Of a DNA stretch of 64,000 nt, positions 16,157 to 26,600 are shown in pieces (the first letter of the stretch is position 1; every line of letters begins with the position of its first letter). This DNA comes from Gemmatimonadota bacterium. GTDB lineage: Bacteria > Gemmatimonadota > Gemmatimonadetes > Longimicrobiales > RSA9. Position numbers and translations under genes: made by a program. Under the pieces are notes generated by a model. It saw only the letters and a program-made list of their open reading frames with translations. It made no database searches and was not told the DNA's origin. The stretch is from positions 5,515-69,514 of the forward strand of contig JARRJS010000038.1 in assembly GCA_037388885.1 (NCBI GenBank), written 5' to 3'.

Positions 16157-16310
16157 ATGCCGGGGCCCGGCCGATGGGTCCGACCCGGTTCGCGGGCGTC
16201 CAGGAGGTGGAAAATCGTCTTCGCGCTCTTCCTGTCGGCCTGTCACCCCGGCAGGGACCGGCGAACGACGGTGGGGGTCTCTCCGTCGCGGGCGAAGGGT
16301 GGTGGGCCGG

Positions 16311-16820
16311 CTACGATCCGTGAATCCGCTTGGTGAGTGCGGGCACTACGCCCATGGCCCGCGCCCAGTGCGCGAGCTGTCCGCGGTGGTGCTCTTCGTG
16401 GGCGATGCCGTGGTTCATCCAGGCGAGGCGTGTGCCCAGTTTGCCGTCGAAGCGACGGATGTGCTGCAGCATGGCCAGCTCGCCGGCGTCGCGGATCCTG
16501 TGCAGACCCTCTTCGCCCGTGCTCCGCAGCAGCTCTGCGAGCCCGTCCCGACTGGCCGACTCCGGTAGCAAACCTGCGTGCTCGCGGATATGCTCGGGAT
16601 AGCCCTGGCGCGTGAAGTCGCCAACAGGGTTGCTGAGCTCACCGGCCATCACCTGACCCGATGCCACGATGTGCAACACCAGCTCGGTGACGGTACGCGC
16701 GCCGGGTGCGGGGCTGAAGTCCATCTTGTCGGCGGGCATGTTCTCGAGCTCTGCCACCACGCCTGCCCGGGTGTAGTCCCAGGCTTCCAGCGCTTCATCG
16801 AGCAACGTCTTGTATTCCAT
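16311..16820 (-). CDS. DinB family protein
   Basis: FSPAPGARTVTELVLHI and HEEHHRGQL provide the His triad of the DinB fold. GGAG RBS upstream. Confidence 0.9.
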   Translation of the reverse strand: MEYKTLLDEALEAWDYTRAGVVAELENMPADKMDFSPAPGARTVTELVLHIVASGQVMAGELSNPVGDFTRQGYPEHIREHAGLLPESASRDGLAELLRSTGEEGLHRIRDAGELAMLQHIRRFDGKLGTRLAWMNHGIAHEEHHRGQLAHWARAMGVVPALTKRIHGS

Positions 16821-16962
16821 GAGACCATCTCCGGCGTGGGGCGCAGCGCGCAGCCCGCTCGGGAGCGGTATCCGGACGGGATTGCGGCTACACGAGGTTG
16901 CACGAATAGGCTACGTTTCGTGGTCGTACTGTCGCAATGCGTGTACCAACCGGCGAGACGCA

Positions 16963-18078
16963 GTGCCGAATCTGAAGCTGGGGATCGTAGGACTGCCGAA
17001 TGTCGGCAAGTCGACGCTTTTCAATGCCCTCACCGCCGCGGGGGCTGCGGCGGAGAACTATCCGTTCTGCACGGTAGACCCGAACGTCGGCGTCGTGGAT
17101 GTTCCGGATCCGCGCCTGGATCGGCTCTACGACTGTGTCCAGCCGAAAGCGCGCGTGCCGGCGACGGTCTCGTTCGTGGATATCGCCGGCCTGGTGGAGG
17201 GTGCGTCCCGGGGCGAGGGTCTGGGCAACCAGTTCCTGGCACACATCCGGGGCGTGGACGCCGTCGTGCATGTCGTCCGCTGCTTCGAAGATGCAGACGT
17301 GGCCCACGTGCTGGGCACCGTCGATCCCGTGCGGGACCGCGGCATCATCAGCACCGAGCTGGCGTTGTCGGACCTCCAGTCGGTGGAGCAGCGCCTGGAG
17401 CGCGTGGAGAAGGTGGCTCGCAGTGGCGGGCGCGAGGCGCAGACCGAGGACCGGCTGTTGCGCCAGCTGCACGACGTCCTGTCGGAAGGGAAGCCGGCGC
17501 GCCTGATCGAGGCGCACAGCGAGGAGGAGGCGGGCCTGCTGAGCAGCTACCAGCTGCTGACAGCCAAGCCAGCCCTGTACGTGGCCAATGTCACGGAGGC
17601 GGAGTTCCTGGGCGACGCTCATGAGAGTGCACACGTCGCCGCCTTGCGCGCGGCCGTCGACGGGGATGACGAGCCCGCCGAGGTCGTCGAGCTGGCCGCA
17701 CGCCTCGAAGCGGAGCTGCTTGCTCTGGACGACGACGAGCGGGCGCAGTACCTGGCTGAGCTGGGCCTCGAAGAACCGGGCCTGTATCGTCTCATCCGGG
17801 CCGGGTACCATTTGCTCGGCCTTATCAGCTTCTTCACCACCGGGCCGAAGGAGGTCCGCGCCTGGACCATTCGCGCAGGCACGCGCGCCGCGCAGGCCGC
17901 TGGCGAGATCCACAGTGACTTCGAGCGCGGCTTCATCCGTGCCGAGACCATCGCCTGGGACGAGTACCTGGCCATGGGCTCGGAGAAGGCGGCGAGGGAG
18001 CAGGGTCGCATCCGCAGCGAAGGGCGGGACTACGTCGTTCAGGACGGCGATGTCATCCTCTTTCGCTTCAACGTTTGA
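16963..18078 (+). CDS. ychF: Redox-regulated ATPase YchF
   Basis: [49 protein letters not shown] and the [12 protein letters not shown]-terminus. Confidence 0.98.
18061..18074 (+). repeat. attL core (last codons of ychF)
   Basis: TTTCGCTTCAACGT followed by TTGA, giving FRFNV*. Confidence 0.85.
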
Positions 18079-18151
18079 TGACCCGTGAACGTCCAGCAAT
18101 AGCGCTGAATTCGTGCGCTGGTGTGTCCGATTGTGTCCCCGCGCCCGGTTT

Positions 18152-18430
18152 TCACGACGCGCGCTCCCCGGCCTGCATGACACGCAGCACGGCTTCCGGA
18201 TCGGCCCGCTGGTAGACCTCTTCGAGCGCCGTGGGCTCAACCCAACCACCGGCCGCGGCGATGTCCTAGGCGGCCAATCCCGTGCGCTCCTGCGCCCACA
18301 GGCGCCGGAACATGTGCCAACCGCCCCGGTCGACGTGGGGCAGCTTCGCCGGCTTATCCGCCCGACGCAGGCAGTAACCCGCCATGAGTTTGTCGAGTGG
18401 CTTGCCGCCACCGGCGTGTGCAAATCCCCG
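18152..18430 (-). pseudogene. Tyrosine recombinase/integrase C-terminal remnant
   Basis: Minus strand reads GKPLDKLMAGYCLRRADKPAKLPHVDRGGWHMFRRLWAQERTGLAA*DIAAAGGWVEPTALEEVYQRADPEAVLRVMQ, with HxxR, GGW and the catalytic Tyr. In-frame TAG at 18266-18268; the N-terminal part is missing. Confidence 0.85.
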
Positions 18431-18460
18431 CAAGCACAGCGCGAGGTCCCGAGACGAATC

Positions 18461-18997
18461 TTACCAAGCAGGCAAGGGGATCTTTAAAGCGAGACCGAGA
18501 CCGACAGCCGGCGGACTCAACGGCTTCGAGACCGGCTCCCATCGGCTGTACCTGATGATCGGCCAGAGGACCAGGCCGAGGGGTAGTCCCACGACGGCCC
18601 CTGCAAGCGCGCCGACGGCGAGGCCGGCCACGGGACCCGGGCAGAGAAACTCACCGTTACAGGACGCCCCGCCGACGACCCCGACCACGGCGCCGGTCAC
18701 GGACATGACGCTCATGGTGATCAGGAGCGTCCGGCGGCTCGTGTATGATTCAGTCTTTTCCTCGATCGTGGACACGTCGGCCAGGGCGTAGCTTATAGGC
18801 TCGAGGCCGTTCGGGGACTCAAACGTTATGCTGTCGCTCGTGATCGCGAGGAGCACCCCCATCCGTCGAAATCCGTCTTGGTGAGTGATCCGGACGGTCT
18901 GACCAGGCGTGAGGCGCGTGAGCACCTGGCCGTGAAGGCCGGTGGCGAAGAGCGATCCGAGCCCTGCCAGAGCGAGGGCCAGCAGCGTGCGCGAAAT
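18461..18997 (-). CDS. Exported glycine-zipper membrane protein, paralog A (178 aa, ATT start)
   Basis: The frame stays open upstream of the listed GTG to ATT at 18997, behind a GGAGG RBS. It is exactly colinear with 19871-20407 (both 537 nt). Confidence 0.8.
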   Translation of the reverse strand: MSRTLLALALAGLGSLFATGLHGQVLTRLTPGQTVRITHQDGFRRMGVLLAITSDSITFESPNGLEPISYALADVSTIEEKTESYTSRRTLLITMSVMSVTGAVVGVVGGASCNGEFLCPGPVAGLAVGALAGAVVGLPLGLVLWPIIRYSRWEPVSKPLSPPAVGLGLALKIPLPAW

Positions 18998-19210
18998 GGG
19001 ACCTCCCGGGTTGAAGTGAGGCTGGTCGTCTATCCCATTAGGTAGGTAAACCGCTTCAAGGCAGGATCAATTGGGCGAACGAATCGGCATCGAGGACGGG
19101 GCCGTTTGACACGTGTTGTGAAGTTCCCGGCTTCCCAGGCAATTACCTTAATGAACGGCCAACGTGTGACCAGCCTCAACCCCACATGGCCCACCTCCCC
19201 GGAGGCCCGC

Positions 19211-19779
19211 ATGTCTGGAACCTTCCTCGCACGCATCGCGTTGTTCCTGTCCGTCGCGGCAAATCTGCGACGAACCGCACTACCGCTGGACGGAGAAGAC
19301 GGACCCAAGTCTCTCGACGAATACGGCCCAGCGTGCGACCGTCTGGGCGATGTTGAACCAGTGGAACCCTTTGGAATTCACGGGCTCGGACGATTACGGG
19401 TGCGCCGACCGGGAGGGGCTCGAGAAACGGGTTTGCAGCGTCCTCGGTTGGGTCCGGCGGGTCAAGACGGGCGAATCGGACGGGACCGGCACATCGAGAT
19501 CACGTCGCGGCGCAGCAGTCCCGTCGGCGAGTGCGTCGTCGTCGAGATCCCGCCGCCTGAAAACAGCGCCCTATGCGATATCGCCCGGACATCCCTCAAC
19601 GACCACATCGCGGTCGGAGGCGCTACGATGGATTCAGGCGGGACTTGAGCACGCCCGTGCGCATCCGGATCATCGGAGCTGCATTCTTCGACGGCGAGCA
19701 CCGGGGAGGTGCCAACCACAGGGATGAGACGCGCGGCGATCATGGCCGGCGCAACAGCTCCGTCCGCACCCTATGGGAG
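19211..19779 (+). pseudogene. Secreted protein (probable OB-fold) broken by three frameshifts and a 3' truncation
   Basis: GGAGG-ATG. Segments MSGTFLARIALFLSVAA / QICDEPHYRWTEKTD...VRRVKTGESDG / DRHIEITS...CVVVEIPPP...DSGG / DLSTPVRIRIIGAAFFDGEH...HGRRNSSVRTLWE lie in different frames, with shifts at about 19260, 19484 and 19642. Confidence 0.7.
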
Positions 19780-19870
19780 AGTGGGGCTTGGGCGCGGGCA
19801 CCCACAGGAGTCGATGAGACGCATGTGTTTGAGGCGCCCCAGGGGCGTGTCCCTGGTCCCAAGAAAAGCT

Positions 19871-20407
19871 TCACCAAGAAGGCAACGGGATCTTGACTGA
19901 GAGACCGAGACCGAGGCGCGGGTGACTCTCCGGCTTCCCGACCCGCTCCCACCTGCTGTACCTGATGATCGGCCAGAGGACCAGGCCGAAAGGCAATCCG
20001 AGGGCCGCGCCCCCGAGTACGCCAGCGGCCAGGCCCCCTGCGGGACCCGGGCAAAGAAACTCGCCGTCACAGGACACCCCGGCGATGGTGCCGAGTAAGC
20101 CGCCGGCCAGGGCCGTGACGCCCATGGTGATCAGGATCGTCCGGGCGCTTGTGTACGATCCGGCCTTCTCCTCGATCGTGGATAGGTCGTCCAGGTCGTA
20201 GGTCCAACGCCCCAGTCGGTCCTTGATCTCGATCGTCCCGTGGTCAGTCGATATGGAAAGGATCTCGCCCGTGCGGTGGCGGCCCGTCTCGTCCGTTATC
20301 CGGACGGTCTGACCAGGCGTGAGGCGCGTGGGCACCTGGCCGTGAAGGCCGGTGGCGAAGAGTGATCCGAGCCCTGCCATGGCAAAGACCAGCACCGTGC
20401 GCGACAT
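19871..20407 (-). CDS. Exported glycine-zipper membrane protein, paralog B (178 aa)
   Basis: Signal peptide (…ATGLHG|Q), small beta domain GQTVRIT...STIEEK, hydrophobic hairpin with SCDGEFLC loop and GxxxG repeats, C-terminus GLGLSVKIPLPSW. RBS GAGGAGG. Confidence 0.85.
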   Translation of the reverse strand: MSRTVLVFAMAGLGSLFATGLHGQVPTRLTPGQTVRITDETGRHRTGEILSISTDHGTIEIKDRLGRWTYDLDDLSTIEEKAGSYTSARTILITMGVTALAGGLLGTIAGVSCDGEFLCPGPAGGLAAGVLGGAALGLPFGLVLWPIIRYSRWERVGKPESHPRLGLGLSVKIPLPSW

Positions 20408-20729
20408 GGGACCTCCTCGGGTGGAGTAAGATAGGATCTTCGATGGTTGCCGGATGCCGGCACCTGCCCGGCACGTAGGTCCATCTTCCCGAGTAGGTAG
20501 GCAAACCGCGTCAAGGCAGAGTCAAGCAATAGCACCGCGCGGGGCCGCATCCTGACCCATCCTGCCATTCCCGCCCGCCGCACGTCGCGCAAACTTGGAG
20601 CTCACCACCACCCGGAGGCGAACGTGGGCCCACCTGGAGCTGCGCGACCTGCCCGTTCAGGGCGGAACCCGGCGGACCGGATTTCGCAGCAGACGGCGCC
20701 GCGTGCCGCATCGGGCTTCCGTCCGGATG

Positions 20730-20743
20730 TTTCGCTTCAACGT
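20730..20743 (+). repeat. attR core (displaced original ychF 3' end)
   Basis: TTTCGCTTCAACGT followed by GTAG also encodes FRFNV*. Confidence 0.85.
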
Positions 20744-20765
20744 GTAGGGCGCCGGCGCGTTGCAC

Positions 20766-20953
20766 CGGCTGCAGGTGGCAGGTATCAGGTCCACGTTCGC
20801 GGCGTGCGCCGGTTCCCGGCCAGGGCGCCACCCTTCGCGCGGTAAGCTTTTCCGTCTTCGCCTTGCGACGAATGCGTACGCCGGTGACCGGGCGCTCAAC
20901 GCCCAGCCCGCTTATCCAACAAGCACAGAGCTGCCACCTGCGACCTGCAGCCG
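20766..20953. repeat. Heptamer inverted-repeat-bounded element, copy 2 (188 bp)
   Basis: CGGCTGCAGGTGGCAGGTATCAG (20766-20788) matches the reverse complement of 20931-20953 (CGGCTGCAGGTCGCAGGTGGCAG) at 20/23 positions. Confidence 0.7.
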
Positions 20954-21024
20954 CCGCGGCGGAGCCGGGGCGGCGCCCTGTGAGCCGCGGCGGCTGTATA
21001 CGCTGCGAATCCGCGTGCCCCGGC

Positions 21025-21053
21025 TTTACGAAAACCGCCCGGAACGATATACT
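21025..21053 (+). promoter_or_regulatory. sigma70-type promoter of the rpsF operon
   Basis: TTTACG-N17-TATACT. Confidence 0.7.
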
Positions 21054-21066
21054 TACAGGCTTTCTA

Positions 21067-21112
21067 TCCTGCCCCGCGCAGCGACGCGGGGCCGAACGAG
21101 ACCGGGGGAGGA
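21067..21112 (+). promoter_or_regulatory. S6:S18 ribosomal-protein leader (autoregulatory RNA)
   Basis: CCT-GCCCCGCG-loop-CGCGGGGC-CG...GGGGGAGG: a stem followed by the conserved CCG and an RBS pairable with the 5' CCT, directly before rpsF. Confidence 0.75.
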
Positions 21113-21117
21113 AACGC

Positions 21118-21489
21118 GTGAAGGATTACGAGATCGTCTACATCTTCGACTCGATGCTGGACGAGGAGAAGATTCGCACCAAGCTGGACGGATACCACCA
21201 GCTGATCACCGGGGACGGCGGCGAGATCACGGCCGTCGATTTCTGGGGCAAGCGTCAGCTCGCCTACCCGATCGCCAAGAAAGCTGCGGGCAACTACGTC
21301 GTCGTGCAGTTCCGCACGGGCGCGGAGGCGCTACCGGAGTTCGAACGGCGTCTGAAGCTGGACGATGAGCTGTTGCGCTACCTCATCGTGCTGAGCGAGG
21401 GAGAGCCGACGGCGCCCATGTCGCTGTCGACCCGGGAGCCGTCGTCCAGAGACGACGACGAGGACGACGACGATGAGGAGGAAGACTGA
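21118..21489 (+). CDS. rpsF: 30S ribosomal protein S6
   Basis: MKDYEIVYI, WGKRQLAYPI and ERRLKLDDELLRYL motifs; acidic tail. Confidence 0.97.
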   Translation: MKDYEIVYIFDSMLDEEKIRTKLDGYHQLITGDGGEITAVDFWGKRQLAYPIAKKAAGNYVVVQFRTGAEALPEFERRLKLDDELLRYLIVLSEGEPTAPMSLSTREPSSRDDDEDDDDEEED

Positions 21490-23638: not shown

Positions 23639-26600
23639 ATGAGGCGCAGTCTGTGCAGCGCGGCCCTCGCCGGGGCTCTCCTCGCCTTCGCTGTCGCACC
23701 CGCACAGGCGCAGTTTGGACGCAACAAGGTGCAGTACCGCGCGTTCAACTTCCGGATCATCAAGACTGAGCATTTCGACATCTACTTCTATCTGCGGGAG
23801 CGTGAGGCAGCGCTGGACGCTGCGCGTATGGCGGAGCGTGCCTACGGCCGCCTTTCGCGGCTGCTGCAGCACGAGTTCGACACACGCAAGCCCATTATCC
23901 TTTACGCATCCCACAGCGACTTTCAGCAGACGAACGCGCTGCCCGGTCTCATCGACGAGTCCACCGGCGGAGTCACGGAGATCCTGAAGAATCGGGTCAT
24001 CGTGCCGTTGACGGGGTCGTACGCCGATTTCGAGCACGTACTGACGCACGAGCTGGTGCACGCGTTCCAGTTCGACATCCTGTTCGGCGACGGCATGGTG
24101 ACCGGTGCGCAGCCGACGCTAAGGGTCCCGCTGTGGTTCATGGAAGGGATGGCCGAGTACCTGTCGCTGGGCCGGGTCGACGCGCACACGGCTTCCTGGT
24201 TGCGGGACGCGGTCACCGCCGGCTACATCCGCGACATCGATGAGATGAACCGGCGGGACGACTATCTGTCCTATCGCTTTGGCCAATCGCTGTGGGCGTT
24301 CATCGGCCATCGTTGGGGGGACGACGCCATCGGCGTGGTGCTCAAGAAGCTGGCCCGCATGGGGCTGGAACGGGCGTTCGTGTCCACGTTCGGGCTGACG
24401 CTGGCGCAGCTGAGCCAGGAGTGGCTGGCGTCGGTGCGCACGACGTATCTACCGGAGCTCGTACAGCACGAAGCGCCGACGCGCTACGGCGGGCGGCTGA
24501 CCCACCATGAGAAGCTGACCGACCCGTGGTACCTGGCCCCGGCACTGTCGCCGGACGGCACGCTGATCGTGTTCGCATCCCAGCGGCAGGGCTTCTTCAT
24601 GGACCTGTGGCTGGCGGACGCCAACACCGGCCAGGTGTTGAAACGACTGGTGAAGGGGTCGCGCAGCTCGGGCTTCGAGTCCCTGCGGTACCAGAACTCC
24701 ACGTCGGTGTTCTCGCCGGACGGACGGCTCGTGGCGTTTGCGGCGGAGACCGGTGGGCGGGACGCGCTCTACGTCTACGACGTCCGGAAGCGGAGGATGG
24801 CCTATCGGCTCCAGTTCGACCTCAACGGCATTGAGAACCCGAGCTGGTCGCCGGACGGGCGGCGCATCGTGTTCACCGGCCTTGACGGTGGCCTGAGCGA
24901 CCTTTTCGTAACGGACCTCCATGGCCGTCTGCAGCGGCTCACCCACGACCGGCACGCGGATCTGATGCCCAGCTGGTCGCCGGACGGAAGCCGGATCGCG
25001 TTCGCTACGGACGGGGGCCCTGATGCCGATTTCGGGGACCTGCGTTACGGCAACTTCCGTATCGCTCTGCTCTACGTTGCCAGCGGTCGCGTGGAGCTGT
25101 TGCCGGGACAGGACGTGGGAAAGAACATCGACCCGGTCTGGTCGCCGGACGGCCGCAGCCTGGCGTGGGTGAGCGACCGGACGGGCATCAACAACCTCTA
25201 CCTGTACAACCTCGACGACCGGTCCCTCTTTCAACTGACGGATGTGCTGTCGGGCATCATCGGCACGAATCGCCTGACTCCTGTCCTCAGCTGGTCGCGA
25301 GCCGGCCGTCTCGCCTTCGTGTATTTCGAGCACGGCGGTTACAACCTGTATACCATTGCCGACCCGCTGACACTGCCGCGCCGTCCCGTGTGGCCAGCCC
25401 CCGCGGTGATCGTGCAGCGTGATTCGGGCAACGAACGCGCCGCCGCCGGTGTCGTCGGCGATGCGGACGTGGCCGTGCCGGCGAGCGGCGTGGGTGAAAC
25501 GCCGACATCGACCGGTAAGCAGACGTCGTCTGCACCGTCCTCGGGGCTCGGCCGGCCCACGAGCGACGCAGCGTCCTGGCTGCGGCAGGATGGAGTGGGC
25601 TTTAGCGCAACCGAGGTCCGACCAGGGTCCGATGGACGCCGCGGCGGGCGGCGTTCCCTGGTGGACGTACTGGACAGCGCCGGCACCGTCCTGCCGGACA
25701 CCAGTGCCTTCGACATCGTCCGTTATCATGTGAAGTTCACACCGGACGTGATCGGGCGGCCGACCATTGGCGCGACGGTGGGCGGTTACTACGGGAACGG
25801 ATTGTATGGCGGCAGCCACATCTCGTTGTCGGACATGCTGGGCGACCAGAACATTGTGTTGGCCGGCAACATCAACGGCTCCCTATCGGACGCTGTGTTC
25901 TTCGGCAGCTACGAGTACCTGAAGCGGCGAGTGAACTACGGCGTGACGTTCCAGCAAGTGCCGCTCTACCGGTACCGCGGATTGCAGTCCTTCACCGTGG
26001 AAACGAACGGTGTGCGGCGCAACGCGCTGGCGCAGGTGTTCATCCGGGACGTGATCCGACAGGGCACGTTGATGGCGCATTATCCGTTCAGCCAGTTCCA
26101 GCGCCTGGAGCTGGGCGCGAGCGCGATCTACTTCAAGCGCGACTACCTGTTTCGGGGCATCCTGACAGATACGAACAGACCGCTGATCCGGGACGAGCGC
26201 ATCGGCGATGTGGCGTTCGCGCAGCCGACCGTGGCGCTCGTGTTCGACAATGCGCTGTTCGGCTGGACGGGCCCGATCTACGGCACACGCTACCGCCTCC
26301 AGGTTTCGCGAGCGTACGGTGGCTACAGCTTCGACGAGGGGTACCTGGACTTCCGCAACTACTGGAATCTCAAGCGGGTGGTCGTGCTCGCGAGCCGGTT
26401 TGTCGCCCTCGTGCGCCAGGGCCGTGACGCCGACCGCTTCTCCCTGTTCTGGGGTGGCCCCTACTTCATACGGGGCTACGACGCCACCACGTTCGATCCG
26501 GGCGGGCCCGAATGCGAGCAGGATCACGTGGCAGGCGGCGCCTCTGGGGCTGTATGCCCGGCCCGCGACCAGCTGATCGGCTCCAGCGCCGCTTTCATGA

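Follow-up and report, generated by a model that had tools for sequence, protein, structure and literature searches.

The described systems closest to the one reported here are the outer-membrane lipoproteins SlyB, OsmB, YiaD and YfgH, which have two transmembrane (2TM) segments with a glycine zipper and which, according to the accessible part of a preprint, oligomerise around lipids and outer-membrane proteins; SlyB is presented there as an 11-mer that encloses lipid (bioRxiv 10.64898/2025.12.22.696046). We analyzed a 64,000-nucleotide stretch of contig JARRJS010000038.1 from a Gemmatimonadota bacterium (hereafter the window, to which all positions refer) that carries on its minus strand a tandem pair of frames for exported glycine-zipper proteins, here called copy 1 and copy 2. 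Glycine-zipper envelope proteins are already known; the architecture of this pair, a predicted Sm-like barrel with an inserted zipper hairpin, is undescribed and very widespread in the phylum. Our favored reading, to which we give a probability of roughly 55%, is that the pair represents small Sec-exported envelope proteins that are embedded in a membrane, associate with themselves and act in the manner of the glycine-zipper stabilisers of the outer membrane. The two copies are members of a very large unnamed family and not orphans; the family is typical of Gemmatimonadota, with Acidobacteriota clusters also present in the ESM Atlas. At this locus, the pair was acquired horizontally, as cargo of an integrative element that lies at the 3' end of ychF and has since decayed. 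An initial annotation of the window described the anatomy of the proteins and the island correctly but went too far on function.

The two minus-strand frames, each of 178 codons, aligned without a gap at an offset of exactly 1410 bp. DNA identity at this offset was 76% over 18461-18997, while the 199 other offsets between 1300 and 1499 averaged 28% and did not exceed 35%, which bears out the colinear paralogs of the initial annotation. A repeat search also placed its families D1 and D2 at a spacing of 1410. Copy 2 (19871-20407) is an intact gene for 178 amino acids, with an ATG five bases after a GGAGG at 20412-20416. Copy 1 (18461-18997) encodes a colinear protein with 63% amino acid identity to copy 2 and has the same GGAGG (19002-19006), but its start position reads ATT (18995-18997). 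Because ATT replaces ATG, the open reading frame finder reported copy 1 from an internal codon only; this first canonical start, a GTG at 18925, would give a product of 154 amino acids that lacks the signal peptide, and no purine-rich ribosome-binding stretch was found upstream of it. Translation starts only very weakly at AUU. A one-off assembly error does not account for the ATT, since contigs of two public marsh metagenome runs, one of which may be the source of the window itself, covered it with 0 differences.

Similarity between the copies is distributed unevenly. An 82-nucleotide (nt) minus-strand block covering residues ~10-37 (18888-18969 in copy 1, 20298-20379 in copy 2) differed at 2 of its 82 positions, and identity was 93% over residues 25-38 and 32% over the adjacent residues 39-75, so that the near-identical block and the diverged neighboring domain both stand as first described. 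A single A>G variant was noted inside this block, at 18921, in one contig of run X1 at a depth of 3.5. All motifs quoted in the initial annotation were recovered, namely SCNGEFLC and its variant SCDGEFLC, GLVLWPIIRYSRWE in both copies, and the corresponding GLGLALKIPLPAW and GLGLSVKIPLPSW. Upstream of copy 1, a 42-nt block on the minus strand (19029-19070) was 81% identical to 20484-20525 (repeat family D4) and is a candidate for a promoter or regulatory site common to both copies; in copy 2 the distance from the block to the ribosome-binding site is longer by 45 nt. An Rfam search of 17900-21200 returned nothing near the gathering scores.

AlphaFold2, run with an alignment of 86 sequences, produced a model with a mean predicted local distance difference test (pLDDT) score of 88.5, in which 115 of 178 residues reached at least 90. 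The model opens with a signal-peptide helix at residues 2-22, followed by five strands (34-85), by two helices (89-109 and 121-144) that an 11-residue loop separates, and by a further strand (150-156); the C-terminal tail is its least confident part (pLDDT 65-77). The predicted fold is a beta-barrel of the Sm/Hfq type into which a helical hairpin is inserted, with a GxxxG face along the hairpin and a Cys pair at its tip. In copy 2, the signal peptide that marks it as an exported protein takes up residues 1-23, the modeled barrel residues ~34-85 (nt 20153-20308) and the modeled glycine-zipper hairpin residues 89-144 (nt 19976-20143), after which the strand at 150-156 returns to the barrel and the tail closes with Trp. 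Helices 89-109 and 121-144 thus form a hairpin with repeated GxxxG, as is asked of 2TM proteins of the SlyB type. In the second helix, the zipper ladder of copy 2 stays in register over G121, G125, G129, G133, G137 and G141, which makes five to six GxxxG units.

A VIA-align comparison with 48,161 chains placed Hfq and Sm proteins first, with Z of 8.1-8.4 and a root-mean-square deviation (rmsd) of 1.8-3.0 Å over 54-59 residues, all within model residues 22-84. The Hfq chains 3hfo_A, 1kq1_A, 4y91_A and 6gwk_A reached Z 8.4 (54-59 residues, rmsd 1.8-2.9 Å), which is a likeness at the level of the fold only, and Z near 8 is common for models that have no clear match. The beta domains of the MscS-family channels YbiO (7a46_A, Z 7.3) and MscS (3udc_A, Z 6.8) appeared lower down. 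Foldseek returned no row at E<=0.001, its best rows being Hfq, Tudor and SH3-like barrels, and against viral models it gave whole-length rows only with TM scores of at most 0.35 and rmsd of 11-16 Å.

Conservation among the 86 relatives picked out the same elements. The Gln at the first mature position was kept in 86 of 86 and Ala at position -1 in 71; such an invariant Gln is consistent with cleavage by signal peptidase I at an AxA|Q site. The predicted cut was LHG|Q in both copies, neither of whose signal peptides contains Cys. Arg36, in the GxRVRV strand, was kept in all 86 relatives, Trp153 (ERW) in 85, and Cys113 and Cys119 in 81 each; the glycines at 129, 133, 137, 141 and 145 were kept in 82, 79, 77, 85 and 76. 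Both copies carry Q24, R36, C113, C119, G129, G133, G137, G141 and W153, and both deviate at position 34 (T for an R that is present in 75 of 86) and at position 145 (W for G). Taken with the confidence of the model and the match to Hfq, the retention of the cysteines agrees with the exported protein, Sm/SH3-like head and Cys-closed zipper hairpin of the initial annotation. The diverged head is the least conserved region in the family at large as well. Both copies end in KIPLP(A/S)W, which had been read as a possible beta-signal; as the last residue is F or W in only 26 of the 86 relatives and R in 32, a terminal Trp is not typical of the family and the suggestion is weakened. Charges flanking the hairpin averaged +3.67/-1.33 on the N-terminal side and +1.94/-1.70 on the C-terminal side over the 86 relatives, and the loop was acidic (+0.37/-1.63).

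In a crude scan of the bacterium's own genome, noted together with window positions 23639-23720, 61 of the 369 N-termini that resemble signal peptides had Gln directly after AxA, compared with a background Gln frequency of 3.7%. This enrichment resembles the 'Q-rule' described for Bacteroidetes. The accessible portion of the Q-rule paper states that not all of the FCB group follows the rule, and Gemmatimonadetes are not named in it (PMC5837995).

Searches of reference collections left the pair without a name. Pfam, NCBIfam and PHROGs gave nothing at threshold for either copy. The heads of the copies drew a PUA-like Pfam match at E 0.014-0.019, which is below threshold, and models for LSM or Hfq were absent from the Pfam and NCBIfam matches. 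PF05433 was found neither among the matches of either copy at E<=10 nor among the 14 families matched by the 86 relatives at E<=0.01. A profile search of the sequences of solved structures in the PDB gave a best E of 0.035, with one Lsm5p chain at E 0.52. No Pfam, NCBIfam or solved-structure family covers the pair; a full-text literature search for 'glycine zipper' together with 'Gemmatimonadetes' returned no paper.

On the other hand, relatives were plentiful. A word-indexed search returned five proteins at E<=0.001 among 2347 candidates, two of them the window's own and three (P0004-P0006) from other assemblies and 55-65% identical to the pair. We built a family profile from these five and from three homologues, 28-33% identical, of genomes in the same taxonomic family. 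It recovered 8039 cluster representatives at E<=1e-3, 1162 at E<=1e-10 and 6 at E<=1e-30, nearly all of them 150-215 amino acids long and matched over their full length, so the pair is not the isolated curiosity for which it could be taken. The family is defined by profiles A2/A3 as the 'Sm-barrel + glycine-zipper hairpin' family of Gemmatimonadota; copy 2 matched it at E 1.3e-40 (positions 1-187 of 189) and copy 1 at E 2.5e-40 (positions 4-186). The nearest clusters in the ESM Atlas came from Gemmatimonadota and Acidobacteriota, and all were labeled 'hypothetical protein'. In an even sample of the phylum, which included the unpublished genomes G202 and G224, 108 of 201 genomes matched at E<=1e-5; the number of matches per genome ranged from 1 to 6 and was usually 1-2. 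Gly-zipper_YMGG matched 8 of the 86 relatives at E<=0.01 (best 7.1e-8), and no Pfam model fell on the head. In the bacterium's own genome, which is 85.7% complete, the profile found these two copies only; in a genome of the same genus (G001), a single-protein query did not find the family.

The tandem arrangement recurs elsewhere. Five representatives (P0028, P0049, P0056, P0063 and P0151) are natural fusions in which two to four complete modules share a single signal peptide, and 8 of the top 150 representatives matched in at least two stretches. Among 150 listed matches, adjacent tandem genes occurred in at least five other genomes (G093, G112, G117, G124 and, as a four-gene array, G240). 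Because such tandem genes and fusions occur elsewhere, neighboring paralogs are a recurrent habit of the family and not a peculiarity of this locus. In P0028, P0049 and P0151 the Cys pair is kept in the last module only. A two-module AlphaFold2 model of P0056 had a mean pLDDT of 66.7 and fell below 50 over residues 38-100 of module 1, and it was uninformative on contacts between modules; module 2 had the same fold, with a C-terminal beta-hairpin. We also annotated seven other family loci with 104 predicted proteins. Their neighbors differed and most had no mobile genes. At one of the loci examined (L041, G240:C2:3445000-3460000) the four-gene array lies between DDE transposase and rve integrase genes, beside surface proteins with leucine-rich repeats and immunoglobulin domains. 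No close relatives were found by tblastn in 50,697 phage records or in plasmids, nor in viral contigs (IMG/VR, searched with close-family patterns), JGI metagenome contigs or genome contigs.

To describe selection on the pair we used the method of Nei and Gojobori, with bootstrap 95% ranges. Nonsynonymous divergence (dN) over the whole pair was 0.241 and synonymous divergence (dS) 0.423, giving a ratio (omega) of 0.57 (0.38-0.83), with 0.35% of replicates at or above 1. Purifying selection has acted on the pair, and the dN/dS check called for at the outset came out as not neutral. Over residues 39-75, dN was 0.58 and dS 1.04, which is saturated, and omega was 0.56 (0.23-1.19); no segment had omega above 1. 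The dS was ~0.16 over residues 1-38 and 0.36-0.48 in the other segments. This unevenness indicates recombination, and the low value at the 5' block indicates recent gene conversion. Protein comparisons told the same story, in that copy 2 over residues 39-109 was 73-74% identical to P0004 but 32-56% identical to copy 1, while over residues 25-38 identity was 93% between the copies and 57-71% to the other proteins compared. The simplest history suggested by these comparisons is that the two genes come from different lineages of the subfamily and that gene conversion made their 5' ends alike; diversifying selection acting on a recognition surface after a duplication is the poorer fit. The variable recognition surface of the initial annotation is therefore better read as a mosaic, as synonymous sites of residues 39-75 are diverged too and the head of copy 2 is 73% identical to P0004 and 32% to copy 1. 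Copy-specific substitutions numbered 35 in copy 1 and 19 in copy 2 with P0004-P0006 as outgroups, and 23 and 18 with P0005 and P0006; as P0004 leans toward copy 2, the counts give no clear sign that copy 1 has evolved faster. As for the statement that selection keeps the pair, the purifying selection stands, whereas copy 1 has lost its ATG.

In the reading that we favor, signal peptidase I would cut at AxA|Q to release a mature protein of ~155 amino acids, consisting of an Sm/Hfq-like barrel that is interrupted by the long helical hairpin after the fifth strand and before the sixth. The conserved Cys-x5-Cys of the tip would probably form a disulfide, the hairpin would embed in a membrane, and the glycine face would drive side-by-side association of modules into homo- or hetero-oligomers, with the Arg-rich flanks and the barrel remaining periplasmic. 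Such self-association is supported indirectly by the multi-module fusions and the tandem genes. The most likely site would be the outer membrane, entered from the periplasm, where the protein might organise or stabilise membrane patches as SlyB, YfgH and OsmB do. Copy 2 would be the functional gene, and copy 1 would be silenced or weakly made because its ATG is lost. A four-copy complex prediction for mature copy 2 (residues 24-178, alignment A3) returned a score of 0.00, which gives no verdict and was not used either way. A bolder proposal, which we regard as doubtful, is that the whole family consists of non-lipidated envelope organisers, with Sm-like periplasmic rings and disulfide-stapled zipper hairpins forming a palisade or pore; these would be either a Gemmatimonadota/Acidobacteriota counterpart of SlyB-type nanodomain formers or a new type of channel, integrative elements would carry variant heads from lineage to lineage, and hetero-oligomers of paralogous modules would tune what is enclosed or recognised.

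Several observations weigh against the envelope reading. The route by which an unlipidated hydrophobic hairpin would cross the periplasm to the outer membrane has no explanation, a lipobox-like motif being present in 1 of the 86 relatives, and Sec-dependent stop-transfer into the inner membrane would be simpler as biogenesis. The disulfide, the location and the oligomeric state of the pair are predicted features only. Pfam lends little to the zipper itself: the best match of copy 1, PF13441 (Gly-zipper_YMGG), scored 16.3 bits (E 0.0081) against a cut-off of 28.9, and copy 2 matched no glycine-zipper model, PF13441 being absent at E<=10. A well-constrained gene would be expected to have an omega lower than the 0.57 found here, and part of the pair, copy 1 without its canonical start, may already be decaying. 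A sigma-70 scan found no site on the minus strand and none upstream of either copy. Four DNA runs from four marsh or salt-marsh metagenome studies contain the locus and no RNA run is listed, which gives no evidence on expression. Finally, genomic context offers no functional hint, as neighbors differ at the seven annotated loci.

The first alternative, which we consider possible though clearly less probable, is that the pair forms an oligomer or channel of the inner membrane, in which the hairpin would be two stop-transfer transmembrane helices, the barrels a periplasmic ring, and the zipper the lining or packing of a pore like that of MscS or a holin. This would be the simplest biogenesis for a Sec-exported protein whose two hydrophobic helices measure 21-24 residues, and the Sm-like beta domains of YbiO and MscS are among the structural matches listed above. 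Glycine zippers are said, in work attributed to Kim et al. (2005), to be typical of homo-oligomeric channels. Since the exported barrel joins both ends of the hairpin, the basic flanks of an inner-membrane hairpin would lie in the periplasm and the acidic loop with the cysteines in the cytoplasm. This topology breaks the positive-inside rule, given mean positive charges of 3.67 and 1.94 in the flanks and 0.37 in the loop, and places a conserved Cys pair in a reducing compartment; for these reasons, entry from the periplasmic side with an oxidised tip is favored. In addition, the domain order is reversed relative to MscS, and the profile searches of Pfam, NCBIfam and PDB gave no sequence match to channel families.

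The other alternatives turn on the island in which the pair lies. The gene ychF (16990-18078, plus strand) is the native target of the integrative element; the first copy of an exact 14-nt direct repeat lies at its 3' end (18061-18074, plus strand), and the second, at the distal end of the island (20730-20743, plus strand), reads ..FRFNV* like the C-terminus of YchF. The two repeats are probable att duplications that would bound an island from 18079 to ~20743 (~2.67 kb). Between ychF and rpsF we found the pair, an integrase stump and one pseudogene, and nothing else. The stump (18155-18405, minus strand) holds the last 79 of ~405 residues of a tyrosine recombinase, with an in-frame TAG at 18266-18268, and its truncated end directly adjoins the copy-1 repeat unit, whose edge is at 18445. 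It was 52% identical over these 79 residues to residues 327-405 of an intact 405-residue homologue in a genome of another genus of the same family (G005; E 3e-26). Three intact homologues of the stump matched PF00589 at E 4.8e-8 to 1e-15; the stump alone had no Pfam match. The pseudogene (19100-19900, plus strand) retains parts of a secreted protein (CxEPHYRWT ... DGDWHVEL ... GAAFFDGQHR ... ALWE), and because these homologous parts sit in all three plus-strand frames, at least two frame changes are needed. Its relatives are secreted, Cys-containing proteins of ~200 amino acids that occurred in 6 of the 200 other sampled genomes, all from one taxonomic family (f4), with relatives at L065:1039-1824, L066:1204-1824 and L067:703-1824; no Pfam model matched them. 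Both the integrase and the intervening gene are thus broken, as had been stated. That the pair is the only intact cargo holds insofar as its frames are the sole unbroken ones, and fails for copy 1 in that its ATG is missing.

Comparison with other genomes supported the native status of ychF. The order hppA, M20 peptidase, DinB-family gene, ychF is the same in G005, where ychF is followed by a convergent, intact gene for the 405-residue tyrosine recombinase and by an HTH_17 (excisionase-like) gene; this element at the same ychF site carries no member of the family. In the same-genus genome G001 the whole block 16157-21011, from DinB through ychF to the island, is missing, and the peptidase joins rpsF within ~80 nt (L014, G001:C1:86000-96000). 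Of YchF-like genes, G001 has only a paralog at 41% identity and the bacterium studied here (G000) has both types. The 41% identity and the block missing from G001 had at first suggested that the window's ychF was a foreign extra copy, a reading that we rejected: the gene order shared with G005, together with 70-72% identity to the only ychF present in each of four other genera, shows it to be native. Near the distal repeat, contigs of three marsh metagenome runs break or diverge at 20651 and from 20746 (20746-20790), and short contigs 90-95% alike cover 20730-20788. These contigs may belong to related strains whose junction differs or whose site is empty.

A diverged pair of paralogs with a strong glycine zipper on an integrative island might suggest a mobile toxin system, be it a two-component bacteriocin, a toxin with its decoy, or contact-dependent killing or kin recognition through a variable head. 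Glycine-zipper toxins do exist, CdzC/CdzD, VacA and Tse4 among them. A glycine-zipper effector of a type VII secretion system has also been reported, as far as the accessible part of that source goes (PMC12955049). The initial annotation leaned this way, naming contact-dependent antagonism, kin recognition or a receptor decoy. We hold it to be unlikely. The island contains no secretion-system, immunity or partner gene that we could find, and the pair carries an ordinary Sec signal peptide only. The family is common on chromosomes, present in about half of the sampled genomes at one or two matches, and has varied neighbors at the seven loci; close relatives were not found in the phage, plasmid and viral-contig collections. 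Moreover, omega exceeds 1 in no segment, and dS in the variable head is saturated too.

About equally unlikely, in our estimate, is that the pair serves the mobile element as a 'moron' that alters the host envelope to the benefit of the element, for example by superinfection exclusion or receptor masking, so that the role of the wider family would be irrelevant here. The restriction of family members in the bacterium's own genome to the island, their absence from G001 under a single-protein query, and the four-gene array of relatives between transposase genes at L041 would be expected under it. Against this, PHROGs gave no match, the tblastn search of phage records and the IMG/VR patterns were negative, the element at the same site in G005 lacks a family member, and most family loci examined have no mobile genes.

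That both copies are functionless, decaying remnants whose frames are open because little time has elapsed would suit the ATT of copy 1, the fairly high omega, the two neighboring pseudogenes and the absence of RNA among the runs listed, which we count in its favor, but it is very improbable, as copy 2 keeps its ATG, its GGAGG and every near-invariant residue of the family, dN is significantly below dS, and a random frame of 178 codons at 67% GC stays open with a chance of 0.017, set beside a dS between the copies of 0.42. Two gap-free frames beside frameshifted neighbors therefore indicate long-term constraint on at least one copy.

Gemmatimonadota are abundant in soils and sediments, and their envelope biology is almost unstudied. 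A family that occurs in roughly every second genome sampled from the phylum, comprises thousands of clusters and has a confidently predicted fold is nevertheless without a name or a Pfam model for the whole protein. If its hairpin works as in SlyB and YfgH, membrane-stabilising zippers would extend beyond the lipoproteins of Proteobacteria, and the family would be a compact, well-predicted model for how zipper hairpins reach and organise membranes. The locus itself, with a mosaic pair, a dead island and one copy that lacks a start codon, tempers any account of a diversifying weapon.

Set against known systems, the pair resembles glycine-zipper toxins in its repeated GxxxG helices, and CdzC/CdzD of Caulobacter are likewise a gene pair. 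CdzC/CdzD, VacA and Tse4 rely on dedicated secretion (type I, type VI or autotransporter) and on immunity genes, and a Cdz-type bacteriocin is defined by adjacent type I secretion and immunity genes and by the lack of a Sec signal peptide. The pair differs from them in its Sec signal peptide, its predicted folded barrel, its membership of a common chromosomal family and an island free of secretion and immunity genes. With Sm, LSm and Hfq proteins it shares a modeled five-stranded bent barrel (residues 24-84) that superposes on Hfq, but sequence identity is 13-19% and the chain adds the sixth strand only beyond the helical insertion; because the location is extracytoplasmic, a role in RNA binding is implausible. 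Residues 101-137 of copy 1 align to profile positions 9-39 of 45 in PF13441, a model of the zipper only, outside of which the barrel, the ERW strand and the tail fall. The pair differs from SlyB, YfgH, OsmB and YiaD (the Rick_17kDa_Anti and Gly-zipper clan of Enterobacteria) in that it has no lipobox or lipid anchor and is not a member of those lipoprotein families, its Sm-like barrel is N-terminal and receives the hairpin where theirs is a C-terminal domain, its hairpin tip carries Cys-x5-Cys, it has no Pfam match at threshold and it comes from a different phylum. Self-association into rings around lipids and outer-membrane proteins is a feature of the known SlyB-type proteins in the accessible part of the preprint cited at the outset. 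As far as that part describes them, they are, like the pair, small exported envelope proteins with a GxxxG hairpin, basic periplasmic flanks and an attached beta-rich globular domain.

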